Source: an uncultured Bordetella sp. (GTDB lineage Bacteria; Pseudomonadota; Gammaproteobacteria; Burkholderiales; SG8-41). Taken from it: DNA of 64,000 bases. How positions within the stretch are numbered: position 1 is the stretch's first letter; the number at the start of each line of letters is the position of its first letter. The stretch is taken from NCBI GenBank assembly GCA_964531455.1, contig CAZHFZ010000009.1, positions 7,414-71,413 of the forward strand. Reading direction: 5' to 3'. A model generated the notes under the pieces. It ran no database searches. It saw only the letters and a list, made by a program, of their open reading frames with translations, and had not been told where the DNA came from. Of this stretch, positions 1 through 10,740 are shown piece after piece. Both the position numbers and the translations under genes were made by a program.

Positions 1-839
1 TTGCGCGAATCGTACTTGTGCATGAAACGCTCGCCGTCGCCGTTGAGCAGGTAACCGCCGGCGCCGCGCAGGCCCTCTTCAATGATGGTGCCGGTGATGC
101 GTGTGTCCATGCCGGCAATCAGGCCGGTCGGGTGGAACTGCACCATCTCCATATCGCGCAACTGCAGCCCGGCGCGCATCGCCATCGCCATGCCGTCGCA
201 GCTCTTGTCGCCGGAGGGGGTGTGGTATTTGTACATCGTCGGCCCGCCGCCGGTGGCCAGCAAAACCGCTTGCGCCTGCACAAACGTGAACTCGCCGCTG
301 CGCATGTCGATCATCAGCACACCGGAAACCGCAGAACCGTCCTTGTTCTTGATGAACTCGACGGCGCGGTGTTCTTCCAGCCGGTTGATGCCACGCGCCC
401 ACACCTGTTCGGCGAGGCGGTTGATGATTTCGATACCGGTCAGATCGCCCTTGTGTACGGTGCGATCGAAGGTTTGCCCAGCGAAAGCCTTCTGGTGAAT
501 CGTGCCATCGGGATTGCGGTCAAAGAAACAGCCGAGTTCGTTTTCCAGTTCATGGATGCGCTCGATGGCTTTTTCCACGAGTGTCCACGCCAGGTCCTGG
601 TCGGGCAGCCACTTGCCGCCTTCGATGGTGTCCATGAAATGGCGTTCGACTGAATCACCTTCGGCAAGCGCGACGTTGTACCCGCCCTGCACCATGCGTG
701 TGCAGCCGCTTTTGCCGAGCAGGCCTTTCACCGCAACGGTGATCGACAGTTCGGGGTTGTGCTGATGGGCATGCAGCGCGGCAAACAGGCCGGCGCCGCC
801 GGAGCCGAGAATCAGAATGTCGGTTTTGATTGTTTTCAT
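1..839 (-). CDS. FAD-dependent oxidoreductase, succinate dehydrogenase/fumarate reductase flavoprotein (SdhA/FrdA)-like; 3' end lies outside the window
   Basis: The minus-strand frame is open from ATG 839-837 to the window edge, so it is absent from the ORF track (no stop in window). My translation is MKTIKTDILILGSGGAGLFAAL (GxGxxG) ... KSGCTRMVQGG ... MVQFHPTG ... EEGLRGAGGYLLN, colinear with SdhA/FrdA/NadB flavoproteins. Confidence 0.8.
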   Translation of the reverse strand, partial: MKTIKTDILILGSGGAGLFAALHAHQHNPELSITVAVKGLLGKSGCTRMVQGGYNVALAEGDSVERHFMDTIEGGKWLPDQDLAWTLVEKAIERIHELENELGCFFDRNPDGTIHQKAFAGQTFDRTVHKGDLTGIEIINRLAEQVWARGINRLEEHRAVEFIKNKDGSAVSGVLMIDMRSGEFTFVQAQAVLLATGGGPTMYKYHTPSGDKSCDGMAMAMRAGLQLRDMEMVQFHPTGLIAGMDTRITGTIIEEGLRGAGGYLLNGDGERFMHKYDSR

Positions 840-961: not shown

Positions 962-1573
962 TCAGCTTTTCACACCTAACGCCGCGAGCACGCTTGCGCG
1001 CTGGTCCTTGGCGGCGGCGTTGACCGCGGTATACAGACTGCCGCCATGGGAATCCATCGCCACCAGCAGCGGGCCGAAGCCCTTGATGCGGAATTTCCAC
1101 AACGATTCGGGATTGAGGTCGTCGAGATCAACTTCTTCGATCTGTTCGATCCAGGTCGTTTCCAGCGCGGCGGTGCCGCCGATGATCGCCAAATACACAC
1201 CGCCAAGGTCAGCAAAGGCTTTGGCCGAAGCGGCAAACAACCCACCCTTGCCGATGATGATGCGCACCCCGTACTGCTCCATCAGCGGACGCGTGAAACG
1301 CTCCATGCGCGCGCTGGTGGTGGTACCGATGCAGATCGGCGCGTAGCCCGAAGGATGCGCCTGCGTCTCACCGACCCATTTGACGTTGGGGGCGGTGTGC
1401 ACCACCGCATGTCCCTTCAGATCGAAACGGGTCTTGCGACCATGGTCGAACATGTGGATCTGCGTGGCATCACGGATGCCGTACAGCGTCTGGTGCAGCG
1501 TGACCGTATCGTTGATACGCAGTTTTCGGACCTGCTCTTCCGTCACCGGCATATTGAGTTCGTAGTGCGCCAT
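962..1573 (-). CDS. Fe-S type hydro-lyase beta subunit (class I fumarate hydratase C-terminal domain / L(+)-tartrate dehydratase TtdB-like)
   Basis: 203-aa ORF containing GTTTSARMERF and IIGKGG motifs typical of the FumA C-terminal / TtdB domain. It sits 15 nt downstream of the alpha subunit gene. Confidence 0.85.
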   Translation of the reverse strand: MAHYELNMPVTEEQVRKLRINDTVTLHQTLYGIRDATQIHMFDHGRKTRFDLKGHAVVHTAPNVKWVGETQAHPSGYAPICIGTTTSARMERFTRPLMEQYGVRIIIGKGGLFAASAKAFADLGGVYLAIIGGTAALETTWIEQIEEVDLDDLNPESLWKFRIKGFGPLLVAMDSHGGSLYTAVNAAAKDQRASVLAALGVKS

Positions 1574-1588
1574 ATCGGTATCCCGTAT

Positions 1589-2464
1589 CTAGTACCCGTA
1601 CGTCAGGCCTTGCGGCGTGAAGGTGGCGCGCGCGCGCCGCGCCGAATGGCACTGCATATTGACCGCAACAGGGTTCATCGTGATGTGCGTGGCTGCCGTT
1701 TCAACATGCACCGCAAACGCGGTGGAATCGCCGCCCAGGCCCTGGGCGCCGACGCCCAGTTTATTGACCACGGCACTGAGTTCAGCTTCAAGCTTCGCGC
1801 CTTCCGGATCTTCACATTGACTGCCCAGCGGCCGTGTCGCCGCGACTTTGGACAGGTGCACGCACAGATCAGCCGTACCGCCAACGCCGACGCCGACAAT
1901 CACCGGCGGGCAGCTCTTGCCCCCGGCCTCAAGCACGCAGTCAATGACAAAGGTCTTGATCGCGTCGATGCCGTCAGCGGGTATCGCCATTTTCAGCCAC
2001 GAGTTGTTCTCCGAACCCGAACCCTTCGGAATCATCTCGATCGACAGCGTTTCAGCCTGCGCCGAAAAATCGATGTTGATCACCGGCACATGACGGCCCC
2101 CGGAGGTGTGCAGATTTTTGCGCGTGGTTGGATGCACCACCGAGGAACGCAACGGATGCTCCTGGGTGGCGCGGGTGCAGCCACTGACGATCGCCTGCTT
2201 CAGCGCGTGACCGTCAACTTCGACACCGCTACCGATCACCACGTTGTAAATCGGGATGCCCGTGTCTTGGCACAGCAGGTTGGTGTTGTCCTCAGCCACG
2301 GTGATATTGCGGATCATGGTGCCGAGGATGGCCTTGCCGGTGGCATTGGTTTCGGCGCGGTCCAGTCGCTGAAATCCCTGCTTGATGTCCGGCGGCAGCA
2401 TCTTGAGCGCGCGTATATAGAGCTCTTTGCACGCTTCTTCTAACTGTTTGAGATCGACCTTCAC
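1589..2464 (-). CDS. Fe-S type hydro-lyase alpha subunit (class I fumarate hydratase N-terminal domain / TtdA-like)
   Basis: The ORF contains LLCQDTGIP, GGKSCPP and NMQCHS, the three Cys ligands of the 4Fe-4S hydro-lyase family. I prefer the GTG start at 2464 (gaagg RBS 7 nt upstream) over the track start at 2524. Confidence 0.85.
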   Translation of the reverse strand: MKVDLKQLEEACKELYIRALKMLPPDIKQGFQRLDRAETNATGKAILGTMIRNITVAEDNTNLLCQDTGIPIYNVVIGSGVEVDGHALKQAIVSGCTRATQEHPLRSSVVHPTTRKNLHTSGGRHVPVINIDFSAQAETLSIEMIPKGSGSENNSWLKMAIPADGIDAIKTFVIDCVLEAGGKSCPPVIVGVGVGGTADLCVHLSKVAATRPLGSQCEDPEGAKLEAELSAVVNKLGVGAQGLGGDSTAFAVHVETAATHITMNPVAVNMQCHSARRARATFTPQGLTYGY

Positions 2465-2546
2465 GAATACACCTTCACTTGAATGAAAACCCGGGGACCG
2501 GTGCAGGGCATCGCGCCCGCACAAGCCGGCCGCCGTGATTGTTGCG

Positions 2547-3509
2547 TTACTTCACTTGCAGATTGCGTTCCTTGATGATCTTGGCCCAGCGCGCCGACTC
2601 CGCCTTGATGTCTTTTGCAAATTCCTCAGACGTGTTTCCGACAGTTGTCATGCCGATTTCGTTGATGCGCTTGCGCAAATCCGCACCGCCCAGCGCCTTT
2701 ACCGTGTCAGCGTGCACCTTTGCGATGACAGCCTTCGGCGTGCCGGTCGGAACCATAAAGCCGAACCAGCCGAGGTTTTCAAAACCAGGCAGCGTTTCTG
2801 CGACAGCCGGCACATTCGGCAGTTGTGCGGAACGCTCCTTGCTGGTCACCGCCAGAGCGCGCAGTTTGCCGGAATTGACGAGTGAAATTGCCGCGGACAG
2901 GTTGGGCGTGACGAACTGGATCTGACCGCCGACGAGATCACTCACTGCCGGACCTTCACCCTTGTATGGCACGTGTGTGACATCAATGCCCGATGCGTAA
3001 ATGAAATTCTCCGCAGCGAGGTGCGTCTGCGTGCCGACACCGGCCGAGCCGAATGTCATCGACTTCGGCTTGGCCTTGGCCAGCGCGATGAATTCCTTCA
3101 GCGTTTTTGCCGGATTGCTCGGATTGACAACAATGGCCTGTGGTCCGCTGGCCACATTGGTTACTGCGACCAGATCCTTCTCCGGGCTGAAAGGCATTTT
3201 TGCGTACATATGCTGGTTGGCCGTGACAATCGAGCCGGAGGTCATGAACAGCGTGTAGCCGTCCGGGTTTGACTTGGCGGCAATGTCGCCGCCGATGTTG
3301 CCGCCGGCCCCGGCGCGATTGTCGACCACCACCGGCTGCGCCCAACCTTCATTGAGTTTCTGCGCCACCAGTCGCGCCACGATATCGGTGGCGCCGCCGG
3401 GCGCAAACGGCACGATAATTCGCACCGGACGGTTGGGATAAACATCTGCAGCAAACGCTGTGGATGCGGCGAACATGCATGCCGCGGCGATCAATCCTGC
3501 TTTGCTCAT
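2547..3509 (-). CDS. Tripartite tricarboxylate transporter substrate-binding protein (Bug/TctC family), periplasmic
   Basis: MSKAGLIAAACMFAASTAFA is a signal peptide and is followed by YPNRPVRIIVPFAPGGATD, the Bug family signature. The start at 3509 is preceded by gaggag. No TctA/TctB genes are present in the window. Confidence 0.85.
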   Translation of the reverse strand: MSKAGLIAAACMFAASTAFAADVYPNRPVRIIVPFAPGGATDIVARLVAQKLNEGWAQPVVVDNRAGAGGNIGGDIAAKSNPDGYTLFMTSGSIVTANQHMYAKMPFSPEKDLVAVTNVASGPQAIVVNPSNPAKTLKEFIALAKAKPKSMTFGSAGVGTQTHLAAENFIYASGIDVTHVPYKGEGPAVSDLVGGQIQFVTPNLSAAISLVNSGKLRALAVTSKERSAQLPNVPAVAETLPGFENLGWFGFMVPTGTPKAVIAKVHADTVKALGGADLRKRINEIGMTTVGNTSEEFAKDIKAESARWAKIIKERNLQVK

Positions 3510-3607: not shown

Positions 3608-5023
3608 TTAAAGTCCCAACGCTTCCGCGGCGAGAACGCGCAGATCCCGGGTCATTTTTTTGCGTATCGCCGCGTAGGCCGGTTTCTTGGCCACGTTGAT
3701 CAGTTCGTAGGGATCCTTTTCCAGGTCATAGAGCTCGTCGAGTTCGCCATTGCGTGCGCGATTGACCCAGTGAATGTATTTGTAGCGACCGGTACGAATC
3801 GCCCTGAAACTCATGCCGACCAGCCAGGGATAGGCATTCTCCGCCCAGTATTCGACAAGAAAAGACTTGCGCCAGCCGGAGCGCTTGCCACTGATCACCG
3901 GCAACAGTGAACGCCCCTGAATATGCTCTCCGGGTTTACCGCCGGCGATTTCAAGCAGCGTCGGAGCAATGTCCTGCAAAATCACCAGATCGCTCACACG
4001 TTTGCCGGCCTTGATTGATTTCGGCCAGCGTATGGTCAGCGGGGCGCGAATACCTTCCTCATAGGGGAATCGACGCTCGGGGCCGAGCCCGTGCTCGCCG
4101 AAAAAGTAGCCGTTGTCGCCTAGGAACAGGATTACCGTGTTGTCGAGTTCGCCGGTTTCCTCCAGCGCCTTGAACAACATGCCGACGCCCTCATCCACCG
4201 CCGCCATCATCGCCGCGCGCAGGCGGATCTCCTCCTGCTTGCCGGAGTGAATGGCGTCATGCATGATTTTCGAGGCCTCGGTCTTGCGCAGTTCCACCGC
4301 TTCCGCCCACACCGGTTTGTGCTTGAGGAACTCGGTGGGCTTCTGCATGTTTGGCTTCTTCGGGAATATGCATCCCTTGTACAGATTCTCGTGGCGCTTG
4401 GCCGGACGGTAGCCATCCATGCGGAACGAACCGTCAGCGGCCTGCTCGGCATCCGGATGCACCGCCTTGTGCGCAAACCACAGCGACCATGGTTTATCGG
4501 CGTTTTTCCCCTTGCGCCGGCTTTTGCTCTTGATCCAGTCGACCGCCATCGTGTTCATGATGTCGGTTACATAACCCTTGTGCTGCACGTATTTGCCGTT
4601 TTCGTTGAGCTTGGGATCGTAGAGATTGCCGTGGCCGTCATAGGCCACCCAGAAATCGTAACCGGGACGCGGCTTGCCGTCGTTGCCCATGTGCCATTTG
4701 CCGATGTGTGCGGTTTCGTATCCGAGACGTTGCAGTTCAAGGTGATAGTTCGGCAGACGATGGCTGGCCAGGTCGCGCGCGACGTTGTCGATGATGCCGT
4801 GGCGGCTGGCGTATTGGCCGGTCAGTATCGAGGCGCGGTTGGGTGAGCAGATCGACGTGGTATGGAAAGCGCGATCAAACATCACCCCCTCATGGGCAAT
4901 ACGATCAATATGCGGCGTTTTCATGTACGGATGGCCGCCGGCGCCGAACTCGTCGAAGCGCAGATCATCCACAAGGATCAGCAGGATATTCGGCTTCTTC
5001 GGTTTATTCTTTTTCATTTGCAT
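3608..5023 (-). CDS. Cys-type sulfatase (formylglycine-dependent), no signal peptide
   Basis: PNILLILVDDLR begins at residue 11. The signature CSPNRASILTG (C-x-P-x-R-x4-TG) starts at Cys59. LYDLEKDPYEL lies near the C-terminus. No N-terminal hydrophobic leader is present. Confidence 0.85.
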   Translation of the reverse strand: MQMKKNKPKKPNILLILVDDLRFDEFGAGGHPYMKTPHIDRIAHEGVMFDRAFHTTSICSPNRASILTGQYASRHGIIDNVARDLASHRLPNYHLELQRLGYETAHIGKWHMGNDGKPRPGYDFWVAYDGHGNLYDPKLNENGKYVQHKGYVTDIMNTMAVDWIKSKSRRKGKNADKPWSLWFAHKAVHPDAEQAADGSFRMDGYRPAKRHENLYKGCIFPKKPNMQKPTEFLKHKPVWAEAVELRKTEASKIMHDAIHSGKQEEIRLRAAMMAAVDEGVGMLFKALEETGELDNTVILFLGDNGYFFGEHGLGPERRFPYEEGIRAPLTIRWPKSIKAGKRVSDLVILQDIAPTLLEIAGGKPGEHIQGRSLLPVISGKRSGWRKSFLVEYWAENAYPWLVGMSFRAIRTGRYKYIHWVNRARNGELDELYDLEKDPYELINVAKKPAYAAIRKKMTRDLRVLAAEALGL

Positions 5024-5046: not shown

Positions 5047-5394
5047 TCAGACCAGATTCAGAAGAAAAGCCAGAACCACCACAAGCGATACGCCGGCCGC
5101 AGTCGCGAGCAGCGTTTTCTGCCATTCGCGCCAGTCGAGAAACTCCATCATCAGCAGACGTACGCCGCCGGCCATGTGCGCGGCCAACAGCAACACCAGT
5201 CCGGTTTCGGCAAATTTCACCAGAGGGTTGTGGGTCCACTCAAGAAAGCGGTCCAGCCCTGTCGCGCCATGAAAAGCCTGACCCAGCGCCCAGAAATGCA
5301 AGGGCAGGAATAAGGTCAGCAGCAGCCCTGACAGGCGATGGACAATAAAAGCCCAGTATGCGGGATGATTGCGCGAGCGGAAATCGTTTTTCAT
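5047..5394 (-). CDS. Succinate dehydrogenase/fumarate reductase cytochrome b subunit (SdhC-like membrane anchor)
   Basis: From Met108 of the 222-aa track ORF: IVHRLSGLLL and AAHMAGGVRLLMMEF parallel E. coli SdhC HRVSGV and YHVVVGIRHMMMDF. Three hydrophobic helices are present. The start overlaps the upstream stop by 4 nt (5391-5394). Confidence 0.7.
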   Translation of the reverse strand: MKNDFRSRNHPAYWAFIVHRLSGLLLTLFLPLHFWALGQAFHGATGLDRFLEWTHNPLVKFAETGLVLLLAAHMAGGVRLLMMEFLDWREWQKTLLATAAGVSLVVVLAFLLNLV

Positions 5395-5741
5395 GCAGAA
5401 GCCCCGCCGAATACGGCCATCACCGCACGCAAGCCCCACATCGCCAGGCTCAGTCCAACGACCGCAGCAAAGACATTGGCGCCTCGACCACGCCAGTTGA
5501 ACATTTCGGCCAGTATGGTGCGCAGTCCGATTGGCGCGTGCACGGAAACCGCCGCAACAAACACGGCATAGAACATGAACCAGCCGACATTGCCCTGCGT
5601 ACGACCGAGAATCTCCGCACCGCTGAGGCCGCTGCGCACCGCATAGATCATGGTGATCAGATGCACGACGACACACACCGCAAGCACCATCGCGCTGAGC
5701 CGTTGCGCACCCCACAGCAGCACTTCGCTACGCCGGCTCAT
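5391..5741 (-). CDS. Succinate dehydrogenase/fumarate reductase hydrophobic anchor subunit (SdhD-like)
   Basis: 116-aa protein with three predicted TM helices. SVHAPIGLRTILAEM resembles the SdhD heme-ligand region HAWIGMWQVLTDY. Confidence 0.65.
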   Translation of the reverse strand: MSRRSEVLLWGAQRLSAMVLAVCVVVHLITMIYAVRSGLSGAEILGRTQGNVGWFMFYAVFVAAVSVHAPIGLRTILAEMFNWRGRGANVFAAVVGLSLAMWGLRAVMAVFGGASA

Positions 5742-5795
5742 GCGCTGCGACCCTCCCCGCAGATTAAATTTAAATTATTGTTTTTAAACATTTAT

Positions 5796-6509
5796 TTAGA
5801 TCTCACCAGATAACGTGGCGGCCAATACCGCACGCTTCAATCCGGCAATGCCGGCAGTCGGCGAAAGCCCTTTCGGACAGCGCTCGGTACAGTTCAGATG
5901 GGTATGGCAGGCATGGCAACCGGCATCACCGGCAACCGCAGCCAGGCGTTCGGCGCGCTCGGTATCGCGCACATCGTTCACCAGCGTCCACGCGCGATTG
6001 AGCGCCGCGGGGCCCAGATAATCCTTGTTCCAGGTCACTACATCGCAGGCGCTGTAGCACACGCCGCAGCCGATGCATTCGATGCCGGCATCCACACGCT
6101 TGCGTTCCTTCGATTCCGGAGACACTTGCGCAAAAGCTTCCTTGCGCGTGGTGCTGCCTGCAAAACGACCTCGCGCCTTGGCCCACTTGTCGAAGAATTC
6201 GCTCATATCGGTGACCAGATCCTTGATCACCGGCAGGTTGCGCAACGGCGCGATCTCCACCTTGTTATCTTCTGCCACCTTGTCGACATGGGTACGGCAG
6301 GTCCAGCGCGACACGCCGTTGACCGTCATGGCGCATGAGCCGCAAACGCCGACTCGACAGGCAAACCGATAGGACAGTGTCGGATCACATTTGCGCTGAA
6401 CGTAAGTCACGACATCGAGTACGGTCTGGCTTTCCTGCCGCGGCACCTCAAATTCCTGGAAGCCACCGTTTTCGCTACCGCGCCAGATTCTGACCTGAAG
6501 ATTTTCCAT
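5796..6509 (-). CDS. Succinate dehydrogenase/fumarate reductase iron-sulfur subunit (SdhB/FrdB-like)
   Basis: The CRVGVCGSCAM (2Fe-2S), CIGCGVCYSAC (4Fe-4S) and CHTHLNCTERCPKG (3Fe-4S) cluster motifs occur in canonical order. I place the start at Met33 (MENLQVRIWRG), which avoids overlap with the upstream gene. Confidence 0.85.
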   Translation of the reverse strand: MENLQVRIWRGSENGGFQEFEVPRQESQTVLDVVTYVQRKCDPTLSYRFACRVGVCGSCAMTVNGVSRWTCRTHVDKVAEDNKVEIAPLRNLPVIKDLVTDMSEFFDKWAKARGRFAGSTTRKEAFAQVSPESKERKRVDAGIECIGCGVCYSACDVVTWNKDYLGPAALNRAWTLVNDVRDTERAERLAAVAGDAGCHACHTHLNCTERCPKGLSPTAGIAGLKRAVLAATLSGEI

Positions 6510-6532: not shown

Positions 6533-8188
6533 TTAATGTGCGCCGCCGGTTGTTGCTGCAGTCACTGTTGGCGCAGGCAGGCATTGAATCATCACATTGA
6601 CGCAAGCCGGTTTCCCGCTGGCCATTGCCCTCTGCAGTGCAGGCCGGAGTTCCGTAACACGGGTCACCAGTTCGCCATGACCACCCAGTGCCGCCACCGC
6701 CAGATCATAACGCGTGCCACCGGACAGTTCACAGCCATGTGCACGCTCCTTGCCGTAAGTGCGCAGTTGAATCTGATGTTCGGCGTTCCAGCAGGAATCG
6801 TTGCCGACCACAACCACCATCGGCACATTTGAACGCACCGCCGTATCAAACTCCATCAGATGAAAGCCGAAGGCACCGTCACCCATTACCGCGATGACCG
6901 GTGCCCCGGGGCGGACCATGCGCGCCGCAAATGCAAACGGTACCCCGCTGCCGATGGAGCCGCCGGGGCCATTGATGATGCGGGTTGGCGCGCCGATGCA
7001 GGCCTGCGCCCACTGGCCAATTTCGCCGCCGTCGGCGACAAACACCGCATCCGCTATGCCCTTGAGCGCTTCCTGCACCGCGCGACCCAGTTCGACCGGA
7101 TGCACCGGACCGGCATCGCCGCTGTTGATGTCGCGCCACGCGGCGGGACGGAAAGCCACCGCAGCGGCCACTTCGTCAAACCAGCCCTGCGCTGCTTTAC
7201 GCGTTACGGTTTTGATCAGTACGCGCACGGCCGCGGCAGAATCCGCCTCCGCCGACAGCACTACCCTGGCGGCACCGAGGTTTGTTACCGAGCGCTGCAA
7301 TACGTCGTTTTCCGGATCAATCACCGCAAAACGGCAATCAGCCGCCACTGCCGGCGTCTTGCCGAATTTCAGTGTGAAATCAGGCTGTTTGCCAAGCAGC
7401 ACCACCAGATCAGCCTTGGCCAACACGCCGGCAAAGGCGCCCAATGACGGATCATTGACCCCGCGCGGGCTTTCCATGCATACCGCCGGGACGCCGCTGG
7501 CATCAGCAAGCTGTTTCACCAACGCCGAAACCGGTGCCTGCGACATCACCGGGCCCAGTAAAATCAACGGCCTCTCCGCCGACTGCAGCAACGCTGCCAA
7601 TGCGGCAGCCGATTTACTCTCCAGGGGGTGCTCCGCGGGCGCAAATTGTGCGGCGGTTGCGATTGCGCGGTCGCCATCGGCCACCTTGGCTTCAAGCACG
7701 TCAAACGGCAGACTCAAATGCACCGGCCCCGGACGACCCGAGCGAGCAATTCGGCAGGCCTTGGCAATGTCGGCGCCCAGCGATTCGGCGCTGGATGCGG
7801 TCCACGCCGCTTTCACCAGCGGAGCGGCAATATCAGCCTGACGCATCTCCTGGAATGAGCCTCGTCCCAGTTCATTCAGTGGGGCGTGCCCTGATAACAG
7901 CACTACGGGTGACTCCGAAGCGAGCGCGGTATACAGCGCGCCGACACCATTGGCATGCCCCGGACCGCCAGTCAGCATCACAATACCCGGCTCACCGGTC
8001 AGGCGCCCCCAGGCATCGGCCATGTGTACGGCGGCTCCCTCATAACGCACGTGAGTGATGTCCAGCTTCGCTTCGATCGCCGCGTCATACAACGGCATGA
8101 TGTGATTGCCGGACAGCGAAAACACACGGGTCAATCCGGCCGCAGCCAGCGAACGAGCCAGGATATCGGCGCCGCGCAAAGGGGTCAT
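6533..8188 (-). CDS. Thiamine diphosphate-dependent enzyme (acetolactate synthase / oxalyl-CoA decarboxylase-like family)
   Basis: The N-terminal PYR domain shows HVRYEGAAVHMADAWGRLTG and GPGHANG. The ThDP-binding motif is GDGAFGFHLMEFDTAVRSNVPMVVVVGND. I place the start at Met20 (MTPLRGADILA). Confidence 0.8.
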   Translation of the reverse strand: MTPLRGADILARSLAAAGLTRVFSLSGNHIMPLYDAAIEAKLDITHVRYEGAAVHMADAWGRLTGEPGIVMLTGGPGHANGVGALYTALASESPVVLLSGHAPLNELGRGSFQEMRQADIAAPLVKAAWTASSAESLGADIAKACRIARSGRPGPVHLSLPFDVLEAKVADGDRAIATAAQFAPAEHPLESKSAAALAALLQSAERPLILLGPVMSQAPVSALVKQLADASGVPAVCMESPRGVNDPSLGAFAGVLAKADLVVLLGKQPDFTLKFGKTPAVAADCRFAVIDPENDVLQRSVTNLGAARVVLSAEADSAAAVRVLIKTVTRKAAQGWFDEVAAAVAFRPAAWRDINSGDAGPVHPVELGRAVQEALKGIADAVFVADGGEIGQWAQACIGAPTRIINGPGGSIGSGVPFAFAARMVRPGAPVIAVMGDGAFGFHLMEFDTAVRSNVPMVVVVGNDSCWNAEHQIQLRTYGKERAHGCELSGGTRYDLAVAALGGHGELVTRVTELRPALQRAMASGKPACVNVMIQCLPAPTVTAATTGGAH

Positions 8189-8298
8189 TAGCAGGTTCTC
8201 TCGTTCAAAAAAAACAAAGACCGCGCAGAATCCGCGAACAGCCACAACGCATCGCCATGCATTGCAGCCGAACCACGGACCCCTTGCGGCCTGTTGGG

Positions 8299-9468
8299 TT
8301 AAGCGCTTTCGTACAGACGGGTCAGCACAAACTCGCGATGGCCCAGCGCTTCGGCAGCGGTCAACCGTCCGTTGCAGGTGCGCAGCATGACTTCAATCAA
8401 CTCGTCGCCGGTCTGGTCGAGGTTCTTCTCCCGCTGCAGCAGGCCTGAGCAGTCGTAATCGACGTGTTCGCTCATCGTGCGCACAGTGCGCGGATTCGCG
8501 GTGAGCTTGACAACCGGCACGATCGGATTGCCGATGACATTGCCCTGGCCGGTCGGGAACAGGTGCACCACATAACCGGAGGCGGCGCACAGCGTAACCA
8601 TTTCAGCTGCGGCGGAGGATGAATCCATGAACCACAAGCCGGGCTTGGTCGGCTCTTCGGCTTTATCGAGCACGCCGATGACCTTGCACTTCTTGCCGAT
8701 TTTCTGGATGTTGCCCAGCGCTTTTTCCTCAATCGTGGTCAGACCGCCGGCAATATTGCCCTTGGTCGGCTGCGAATCGGACAGGTCGCTGGTTTTGTTT
8801 TTCTCGACGATTTCCTGGTAACGGTCAAACATGCGCATGAATTCCTTGCGCACTTCCGGAGTTGCGCAACGGTCGGCAACAATATTTTCGCCGCCGGTGA
8901 TTTCGGTGGTTTCACCGAAACACATGGTCACGCCCAGCGGCTCGAGCTTGTCGAAGGCGCTGCCGACAGTGGGATTGGAGCCGCAGCCGGAGGTCGTATC
9001 GGACTCACCGCACTTGGTCGAAACCCACAGGTCGCTGATCGGGCACTCGACGCGCTGCAGTTCGGACGCCCATTGCACGTACTCCTTGGCCACTTTGGAC
9101 GCACGCATGATGGTGTCATGGTCGCCATGCAGTTCAATGCCAAAGCCGGTGACTGGCTTGCCGGTCTTGGCAATGCCGTCGACGACTTTTTTAGCCCAGC
9201 CTTCTTCAATACAGATCACCACCACGGCGGCGACGTTGGGGTTGGCGCCCGCGCCGATGATGGTGCGGAAATGCAGGTCCAGGTCGGCGCCGAACTGCAG
9301 GCGGCCGTAAGGATGCGGAATCGCAATCGCGCCCTTGATGTTGTTGGCCACGGCTTCAGCAGCGGCGTTGGACAGATCGTCCACCGGCAGGATCAGGACA
9401 TGGTTGCGGACACCAACGCGACCGTTCTCGCGGCGGTAGCCCATGAATGTGGTTTTGCTGTCGATCAT
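8299..9468 (-). CDS. UxaA-family (altronate dehydratase C-terminal type) lyase large subunit; SuyB-like
   Basis: 389-aa ORF starting [21 protein letters not shown] and containing [11 protein letters not shown]. This is typical of the GD_AH_C / UxaA large domain encoded without its SAF domain. Confidence 0.8.
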
Positions 9469-9542
9469 TTGTATCTCCGTTTTGGATCGGAATCGGGTTC
9501 GGGTTCGTGCCGGCCTGAAAGCCAGCTTTTACAAACCGTCTT

Positions 9543-9824
9543 TTACCAACGCTTGGTTTTGATGTTGTGCACGTGGGCGTGCTCGCCGAGCTTGATGTCA
9601 GCCACGGCCTTGCCGATATCAAAACCGTATTTGATGATGGTGTCGCCCTTCTTGATCTCGCGCAACGCAGCCTTGTGCCCGATCGGAATGTCGTTAAGCG
9701 CCTTGACCTTGATCGTCGAGTCATCTTCCATGACCCAGCCAACCATCTCCTGGCCGGCCTTGATGCCTTCGATGACGGCCACGCCGACCGTGTCCTTTTT
9801 ATCGTGTACCAACAAGTGAATCAT
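9543..9824 (-). CDS. SAF-domain small subunit of a UxaA-family lyase; SuyA-like
   Basis: From Met63 of the track ORF: MIHLLVHDKKDTVGVAV ... IPIGHKAALREIKKGDTIIKYG ... HVHNIKT, a UxaA N-terminal/SAF fold. An aggagg RBS lies 5 nt upstream of ATG 9824. Confidence 0.75.
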   Translation of the reverse strand: MIHLLVHDKKDTVGVAVIEGIKAGQEMVGWVMEDDSTIKVKALNDIPIGHKAALREIKKGDTIIKYGFDIGKAVADIKLGEHAHVHNIKTKRW

Positions 9825-9919
9825 TTTGCCTCCTGGGTGAACGCTGGGTGATAAGCAAACTGTGCAACCGGAATGAAAACGGTAGTGCAGGTCCGCAGAT
9901 GCTAACTCCCGCGCTTTCA

Positions 9920-9971
9920 GGCAGTCAACTATATGACCTATATGAATCCGCGATCTGCGTGATAGACTGCC
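9920..9971. promoter_or_regulatory. Candidate operator in the divergent GntR / catabolic operon promoter region
   Basis: The inverted repeat GGCAGTC (9920-9926) / GACTGCC (9965-9971) encloses a direct repeat CTATATGA (9929-9936, 9938-9945). It ends 11 nt upstream of the GntR ATG. Confidence 0.35.
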
Positions 9972-9981
9972 GCGCGCCGCC

Positions 9982-10740
9982 ATGGACACGCCCACCCGCA
10001 TCACTGACAACCTCGCCGCCGCCCCGCTTTACCGTGAGGTGCAGTGGCAAATCACCCGAGCCCTGGCCGCAGGCGAGTGGAAGCCGGGTGAAGCCATCCC
10101 CAGCGAATCGCAGCTGGCGCGGCAGTTCAAGGTGTCCATCGGAACCATCCGTCGCGCAATTGACGAACTGGTCGCCGGCCGCATCCTGGTACGCCAGCAG
10201 GGTCGCGGCACCTTTGTCGCTACGCATAACGAAGACCGCACGTTGTTCTATTTTTTTCACGTCGTCGGCAAGGATGGCAGCCGCGAATTCCCGGTCTCCG
10301 AACTGCTGGGCTTCCGCAAGGAACGTGCCGATGCCGACGATGAAATCCAGTTCGGCCTCGCCCGCGGCAGCCGTGTCGCACGGGTCCGCAACCTGCTGAA
10401 GCTCGCCGGCAAACCGGTGGTGCTGGACGACATCACCGTGCCGACCGAGCGTTTCTCGCGCCTCGACGAATCCACCTTCCGCAATCGCGAAGGCACCATC
10501 TATGGCCTGTATCAGGCGCGTTACGGCGTCAATGTCGTACGTATCAGCGAACGACTGTCGGCCGCACATCCTCCATCAGACATCGCCGCCATCCTGTGCA
10601 TGCGTAGCGACCAACCGCTACTGCAGATTCGTCGCGTCGCTTACACATACAACGATACGCCTGTGGAATACCGTCGCAGCTGGATCAATACTGTCAACCA
10701 CGAGTACTTGAGTGACCTGTGGAAAAGCGCGGCGCGTTAA
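9982..10740 (+). CDS. GntR-family transcriptional regulator, HutC/UTRA subfamily
   Basis: The winged-helix region is PGEAIPSESQLARQFKVSIGTIRRAIDELVAGRILVRQQGRGTFV, followed by a C-terminal UTRA-like domain. The gene is divergent from the 9824-to-1 cluster. Confidence 0.85.
   Translation: MDTPTRITDNLAAAPLYREVQWQITRALAAGEWKPGEAIPSESQLARQFKVSIGTIRRAIDELVAGRILVRQQGRGTFVATHNEDRTLFYFFHVVGKDGSREFPVSELLGFRKERADADDEIQFGLARGSRVARVRNLLKLAGKPVVLDDITVPTERFSRLDESTFRNREGTIYGLYQARYGVNVVRISERLSAAHPPSDIAAILCMRSDQPLLQIRRVAYTYNDTPVEYRRSWINTVNHEYLSDLWKSAAR

Follow-up and report, generated by a model that had tools for sequence, protein, structure and literature searches.

A suyAB gene pair, very probably encoding a (2R)-3-sulfolactate sulfo-lyase, heads an operon with a complex-II paralogue in an uncultured Burkholderiales bacterium

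The sulfolactate sulfo-lyases (SuyAB) of Paracoccus pantotrophus NKNCYSA, Cupriavidus pinatubonensis JMP134 and Desulfovibrio sp. DF1 have a common build, with a small SAF-type subunit of ~8-10 kDa (SuyA) encoded directly 5' of a large subunit of ~42 kDa (SuyB). The P. pantotrophus enzyme has reportedly been purified, and its genes are said to lie in a suyR-suyAB-suyZ layout. The recombinant enzyme of Desulfovibrio sp. DF1 converts sulfolactate to pyruvate and sulfite with Fe(II), with SuyB alone being weakly active and SuyA stimulating the reaction (PMC6278857), and the C. pinatubonensis cluster has been described as hpsRNOUPsuyAB, R-sulfolactate being the product of HpsN (PMC11382572). Here we describe a gene pair of this kind from an uncultured Bordetella sp. 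of the order Burkholderiales (GenBank assembly GCA_964531455.1, contig CAZHFZ010000009.1, positions 7,414 to 71,413), a stretch of 64,000 nucleotides referred to below as the window.

The original prediction, made from architecture, was that a SAF-type small subunit and a UxaA-type large subunit are encoded here by separate open reading frames (ORFs) 74 nucleotides apart, in the manner of SuyAB, and reading of the ORFs bears out this layout (table 1). The small-subunit gene lies directly 5' of the large-subunit gene on the same strand, as in known SuyAB, and its ATG is preceded by AGGAGG, a ribosome-binding site; the corresponding spacer between the two genes measures 58 nucleotides in C. pinatubonensis and 3 nucleotides in Paracoccus versutus. 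SuyB carries the Pfam domains GD_AH_second (E 1.3e-31) and GD_AH_C (E 1.9e-86), with the SAF part absent, and its sole relative of solved structure is E. coli GarD (PDB 6U7L, E 3.7e-36). SuyA matches the Pfam SAF domain (PF08666) weakly and under the cut-off (E 0.016), and aligns with residues 6-75, at the N-terminus, of TIGR03248, a model for galactarate dehydratase (E 1.4e-7). Because the search returned more than 8000 homologues and SuyA and SuyB are kept together in all 80 related loci described below, the ORF pair is far beyond what chance would produce.

Pfam and NCBIfam detect only galactarate/altronate dehydratase domains in these proteins, which would also suit a two-subunit UxaA/GarD dehydratase acting on a sugar acid or hydroxy acid (L-fuconate- or altronate-type) and unrelated to sulfonates. 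Split UxaA pairs do exist in sugar-acid contexts, with the same two-gene SAF plus catalytic architecture and the same subunit sizes as the window pair, and a heteromeric L-fuconate dehydratase has been inferred in Paraburkholderia mimosarum (PMC6336799). The distribution of sequence similarity, however, separates the two kinds of enzyme clearly. A tblastn search with the window SuyB against 72,556 plasmids gave sharply bimodal matches, with 13 records at 62-82% identity and the next highest at 39%. The best match (82.3%) is a large UxaA-family gene of C. pinatubonensis, found there in the order LacI-hpsN-hpsO-MFS-hpsP-suyA-suyB. SuyB of P. versutus, whose plasmid pTAV3 served us as a proxy for P. 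pantotrophus, is 67.6% identical; its suyAB genes lie between a divergent GntR gene and one of the sulfate-exporter family, an arrangement matching that given above for P. pantotrophus, in an island that also holds hpsNOP-like genes and a sulfite oxidase. A Rhodococcus match (62%) has an aldehyde dehydrogenase, an MFS transporter, a hydroxyacid dehydrogenase and an Ldh-family (ComC-type) oxidoreductase as neighbours. Other split UxaA pairs reach 36-39% identity to the window SuyB (37-39% for those in sugar-acid contexts), and UxaA and GarD, which share its superfamily and GD_AH_second/GD_AH_C pair, only 28%; the latter two differ, moreover, in having the SAF part fused into one polypeptide of 495-523 amino acids and in hydroxide, not sulfite, being the leaving group. 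The small subunits give the same picture, SuyA being 62% identical to its C. pinatubonensis counterpart and 58% to that of P. versutus, as against 35-40% for the small subunits of other split pairs.

The neighbourhoods of the other split pairs are likewise distinct. The pair of Bacillus sp. S3 lies in a fucose-type cluster that also encodes FucU, GH95 fucosidases, dehydrogenases, a protein of the FAH family and an amidohydrolase that may be a lactonase, the pair of E. albertii adjoins a 2-keto-3-deoxygluconate permease, and the pairs of Variovorax and Haloferax are found among other dehydrogenase and transporter genes. In the window cluster, no sugar-acid kinase, aldolase, uronate isomerase or lactonase gene was found with Pfam and NCBIfam, the extended contig included, which further argues against a sugar-acid dehydratase.

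In a maximum-likelihood tree (IQ-TREE, LG+C20) built from 21 sequences, either large subunits or fused forms, the window protein falls within a SuyB clade supported at 100/100 (stem 0.97), together with the proteins of C. pinatubonensis, Caballeronia, P. versutus, Sinorhizobium (S. mexicanum) and Rhodococcus and eight proteins from metagenome-assembled genomes (MAGs). Within the clade it groups with C. pinatubonensis SuyB in a betaproteobacterial subclade (96/91). The seven other forms all fall outside, namely the split non-SuyB forms, E. coli UxaA and GarD, and a fused paralogue of 519 amino acids encoded elsewhere in the same genome (contig C41). The large subunit thus does not group with the sugar-acid dehydratases, and the split UxaA enzymes are not its closer homologues.

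Residue patterns point the same way. Sulfolactate sulfo-lyase is the exception to the conservation of four cysteines throughout the UxaA/GarD superfamily (PMC6336799), and the positions of E. coli UxaA C132/C166/C199/C264 correspond in our alignment to L32/R56/I87/C153 of the window SuyB, so that three of the four cysteines are lost; the pattern is the same in the C. pinatubonensis and P. versutus proteins, whereas the Bacillus sp. S3 and E. albertii split enzymes retain all four. We also defined signature positions as those invariant in four reference SuyB proteins and absent from the seven outgroups, without using the window protein or the MAGs, and all 32 of these residues are kept in the window SuyB, next to 29 residues invariant over all 21 aligned sequences. 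Orthology thus upholds what had been proposed from architecture, and a sugar-acid dehydratase appears very unlikely. The window pair very probably represents SuyA and SuyB of (2R)-3-sulfolactate sulfo-lyase (EC 4.4.1.24); the enzyme family itself is known and ordinary and, judged from sequence, the pair is one more SuyAB.

By analogy with characterised SuyAB and with the mechanism of UxaA/GarD, we infer that the enzyme is Fe(II)-dependent and would abstract the C2 proton of sulfolactate, and that it would then expel sulfite from C3, where a dehydratase expels hydroxide, to give enol-pyruvate and hence pyruvate.

Table 1. Features of the suyAB locus; coordinates are positions in the window.
Feature	Coordinates	Strand	Basis and remarks
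GntR/UTRA (HutC-type) regulator, SuyR-like	9982..10740	plus	Pfam GntR + UTRA; divergent from suyA
Sigma-70-like promoter match TTGACT-18-TAGCAT	9899..9928	minus	Consensus scan; 5' of suyA
suyA, small SAF-type subunit	9543..9824	minus	93 amino acids + stop, 10.3 kDa calculated; ATG at 9824
suyA-suyB spacer	9469..9542	minus	74 nucleotides, read from sequence
suyB, large catalytic subunit	8299..9468	minus	389 amino acids, 42.1 kDa calculated
Long hairpin followed by U-run, terminator-/attenuator-like	8205..8292	minus	Directly 3' of suyB stop
Thiamine diphosphate (ThDP) enzyme, acetolactate-synthase / 2-hydroxyacyl-CoA-lyase-like	6533..8188 (ORF 6533-8245)	minus	Pfam TPP_enzyme N, M, C
SdhB-, SdhD-, SdhC-like subunits of complex-II paralogue	5047..6509	minus	Pfam + NCBIfam matches; 3' of suyB in most related loci
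Leaderless Cys-type sulfatase	3608..5023	minus	Pfam Sulfatase E 4e-48; not found in many related loci
Bug/TctC solute-binding protein (Bug1)	2547..3509	minus	Pfam TctC E 6e-76
Two-subunit class-I fumarase/TtdAB-like hydratase, type 1	962..2524 (alpha 1589-2524, beta 962-1573)	minus	Pfam Fumerase + Fumerase_C
SdhA-like flavoprotein gene, 5' part	1..839	minus	Full gene 571 amino acids (L093:6540-8252), continues past window edge

The surroundings of the pair combine familiar and unfamiliar elements. As in Paracoccus and Rhodococcus, a divergent GntR regulator is present, and a ComC-type dehydrogenase belongs to the cluster as in known SuyAB systems. Unlike the known clusters, that of the window is without hpsNOP, slcC, suyZ and tauE, and its suyAB genes are followed in one operon by genes for a ThDP enzyme, a complex-II paralogue, a leaderless sulfatase and a class-I fumarase-like hydratase, the gene order on the minus strand being suyA, suyB, ThDP enzyme, SdhB/SdhD/SdhC-like, sulfatase, Bug/TctC, hydratase alpha/beta and SdhA-like. 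The remainder of the SdhA-like gene lies past the window edge and is followed on the contig by a second Bug gene (L093:5470-6444), an Ldh_2 dehydrogenase gene and RecQ. The best NCBIfam match of the Ldh_2 (ComC-like) protein is L-sulfolactate dehydrogenase (206 bits, under the cut-off), and the hydratase alpha subunit passes NCBIfam PRK06246. The ThDP gene probably starts at the ATG at 8188; the models nearest to its product are acetolactate synthase, 2-hydroxyacyl-CoA lyase and oxalyl-CoA decarboxylase, with scores below every NCBIfam cut-off, and homologues in the Methylobacterium radiotolerans and Sulfitobacter clusters described below are 58% and 48% identical, respectively. By the same NCBIfam comparison, it is not Xsc (sulfoacetaldehyde acetyltransferase). 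Three genes of the FGE-sulfatase family, all outside the window (C3:43260-44078, C14:15823-16593 and C27:3663-4373), are candidate maturases for the cluster sulfatase. A TauD/TfdA-family dioxygenase gene (L093:3-806), possibly sulfonate-related, lies upstream of the window where the contig ends, past RecQ and a metallo-hydrolase gene.

The original prediction had also pointed to a TctC-family gene in the cluster, in view of the pairing of sulfolactate degradation with such uptake systems. The gene is indeed there, and a second one lies outside the window; Bug1 is 45% identical to the product of the Bug gene 3' of C. pinatubonensis suyB. The 3.6-Mb genome, however, contains ~202 Bug/TctC-like loci and only 7 TctA matches, an extreme excess of orphan binding proteins, and because of this number one Bug gene in the cluster would be expected by chance about half the time. 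A single Bug gene is therefore weak evidence for the substrate, and we have downgraded it as an indication of sulfolactate uptake.

To see which parts of the operon are conserved, we turned to the 80 related loci, which come from named assemblies, nearly all of them uncultured Burkholderiales MAGs, and whose SuyB proteins are 88-100% identical. Their conserved core consists of GntR, SuyAB, SdhBDC, Bug, hydratase alpha and beta, SdhA, Bug and Ldh_2, with the ThDP enzyme and the sulfatase being variable members. Two minimal loci (L034:9605-13500 and L082:9684-13400) comprise only GntR, SuyA, SuyB, Bug and Ldh_2 and are without the Sdh/hydratase module; the Bug gene is directly 3' of suyB in both, as it is in C. 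pinatubonensis. Judging from these two loci, the Sdh/hydratase module looks as if it had been inserted into what was otherwise a plain cluster for sulfolactate.

Several points weigh against the assignment of the pair to sulfolactate. The group at 88-100% identity consists nearly throughout of uncultured MAGs, and the sequences of Chromohalobacter salexigens and Desulfovibrio sp. DF1 lie outside the tree sample. The C. pinatubonensis enzyme, the closest reference, is assigned from its gene cluster; its activity is reportedly also inducible, and we know of no purification of it. A sulfite exporter gene is absent from the operon, and tblastn found neither SuyZ nor an orthologue of HpsN, the canonical sulfolactate-forming enzyme, in the genome (SlcD and CuyA were not searched for). 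Finally, a closely related substrate, for example 3-sulfomalate, would be compatible with the sequence. An enzyme of the SuyB clade might thus act on another beta-sulfonated 2-hydroxy acid, such as 3-sulfomalate derived from sulfosuccinate, yielding oxaloacetate and sulfite. Sulfosuccinate is a possible alternative substrate of the operon, and a sulfomalate is what the complex-II paralogue and the fumarase-like hydratase would form if they acted on it; Bug/TTT (tripartite tricarboxylate transporter) binding proteins typically bind di- and tricarboxylates, and the lack of an HpsN orthologue fits as well. We nevertheless consider this improbable, as the window SuyB is 82% identical to an enzyme acting downstream of HpsN, whose product is R-sulfolactate (PMC11382572), its 32 clade signature residues are unchanged, and the minimal L034 and L082 clusters, free of the Sdh/Fum module, resemble plain sulfolactate clusters. 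With sulfolactate as the preferred substrate, the other conserved operon members, that is the complex-II paralogue, the hydratase, the Bug proteins and the ComC-like dehydrogenase, probably supply it to SuyAB.

Modules resembling the non-suyAB part of the operon are also found in cultured strains. Plasmid pMRAD01 of M. radiotolerans JCM 2831 carries SBP (solute-binding protein)-SdhB-SdhD-SdhC-hydratase alpha/beta-SdhA-ThDP-SBP, a divergent TauE gene and then SuyA-SuyB-DctA-dehydrogenase-Ldh family-GntR, and P. versutus pTAV3 has SdhBDC-SdhA-hydratase-YeiH-NIPSNAP-TauE approximately 20 kb from suyAB, within one sulfonate island. In Pseudomonas sp. MPC6, Sulfitobacter sp. THAF37 and M. nodulans the Sdh/hydratase module adjoins TauE, with suyAB not being nearby in any of them, and in MPC6 and M. 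nodulans the module is accompanied by genes for a sulfite dehydrogenase or oxidase and for a member of the sulfate-exporter family. The SdhA-like proteins of the six clusters (that of the window included) are 63-69% identical to each other, and all six have Cys in place of the His that links the flavin adenine dinucleotide in FrdA/SdhA and Glu at the position of FrdA Thr244, while the substrate-related His and Arg residues H232, R287, H355 and R390 are retained.

The hydratases of these clusters fall into two types. Type 1, found in the window and in M. radiotolerans, adjoins suyAB, the two subunits of the window being 68% and 63% identical to those of M. radiotolerans. Type 2, found in the other four clusters, shows 64-91% identity within the type and 32-40% to type 1 (28-40% for the window pair against the type-2 pairs), and adjoins TauE, joined in some clusters by YeiH and SorA, but not suyAB. 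The type-2 hydratase of Pseudomonas sp. MPC6 is followed by a CoA-acylating (methyl)malonate-semialdehyde dehydrogenase gene.

How widely these genes are distributed was estimated in 301 genomes drawn evenly from the order; the tallies are purely descriptive, given that related genomes are not independent. SuyB occurs in 56 genomes, and the SdhA-like paralogue and type-1 hydratase occur in 47 and 45, respectively (55, 46 and 44 of 300 without one unpublished genome, G205). All 47 genomes with the SdhA-like paralogue have SuyB. The two genes lie within 20 kb of each other in 30 of these genomes, far apart on one replicon in two, and on different contigs of fragmented assemblies in the remaining 15. 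In G160 and G266, whose paralogues are the most divergent, a type-2 hydratase lies beside the paralogue, on a contig different from that of SuyB.

Succinate, fumarate and malate have 3-sulfopropanoate, 3-sulfoacrylate and 3-sulfolactate as their sulfonate analogues, and under the Cahn-Ingold-Prelog (CIP) rules a sulfolactate configured like L-malate is designated (2R), as is the SuyAB substrate. Together with the linkage of SuyAB to a complex-II paralogue and a fumarase-like hydratase, this leads us to a tentative proposal, which may well need revision, that SuyAB could be the last step of an undescribed aerobic pathway of 3-sulfopropanoate degradation via 3-sulfoacrylate and (2R)-3-sulfolactate. 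The membrane-bound complex-II paralogue would oxidise 3-sulfopropanoate to 3-sulfoacrylate, the type-1 hydratase would add water at C2 to give (2R)-3-sulfolactate with the L-malate configuration, and SuyAB would release sulfite from it, the core thus converting 3-sulfopropanoate to pyruvate and sulfite overall. The clusters with type-2 hydratases suggest a SuyAB-independent variant, in which hydration at C3 may give an alpha-hydroxysulfonate, that is a bisulfite adduct, desulfonating by itself to malonate semialdehyde. A route via sulfoacrylate and sulfolactate has been proposed only in a thesis, 3-sulfopropanoate degradation being otherwise unreported (PMC11489063), and the 3-sulfopropanoate route of Bilophila was called unclear in 2026 (PMC12890257). 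We also considered the SdhA-like protein as a cysteate oxidase resembling L-aspartate oxidase and feeding ComC, and rejected this as the main interpretation, for it leaves the conserved hydratase unexplained.

Sulfite formed by SuyAB could be dealt with by proteins encoded outside the operon. The genome has nine TauE-family genes, all outside the operon, and a SoxC-type sulfite dehydrogenase that passes the equivalog cut-off (616 bits versus 420) and is adjoined by a cytochrome c gene; export of the sulfite would fall to one of the TauE-family proteins, and its oxidation to the sulfite dehydrogenase. The genome further encodes a genuine Xsc (891 bits versus a cut-off of 676), which marks the organism as an organosulfonate user and one that probably degrades C2 sulfonates too. 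In the Xsc region (C11:48817-54553) a TauE-family gene lies ~3 kb away.

As for regulation, suyAB would be the first two genes of an operon under the control of the SuyR-like GntR protein. This regulator is 37% identical over 236 amino acids to the divergent GntR protein encoded 5' of P. versutus suyA, and a GntR gene occupies the same position in 62 of the 80 related loci. The sigma-70-like match upstream of suyA is weak evidence for a promoter, with one such site found versus 0.6 expected. The 110-nucleotide spacer 3' of suyB (8189-8298, minus strand) folds as one long hairpin of -54 kcal/mol (z -4.6; none of 200 shuffles as stable), which could serve as a transcription terminator or attenuator separating suyAB from the remaining operon; a simple terminator scan of the region 3' of suyB gave a terminator-like match not above shuffle expectation. 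The hairpin is followed by UCUUUGUUUUUUUU, with the T-run being conserved solely in the closest relatives.

Read together with its conserved context, the pair suggests that uncultured, abundant Burkholderiales of freshwater and soil, SuyB orthologues being present in 56 of the 301 genomes sampled, would be able to mineralise C3 sulfonates. The operon provides candidate genes for the gap in 3-sulfopropanoate degradation (PMC11489063, PMC12890257), and the distinction between SuyAB-linked and SuyAB-free hydratase types constitutes a concrete biochemical prediction.

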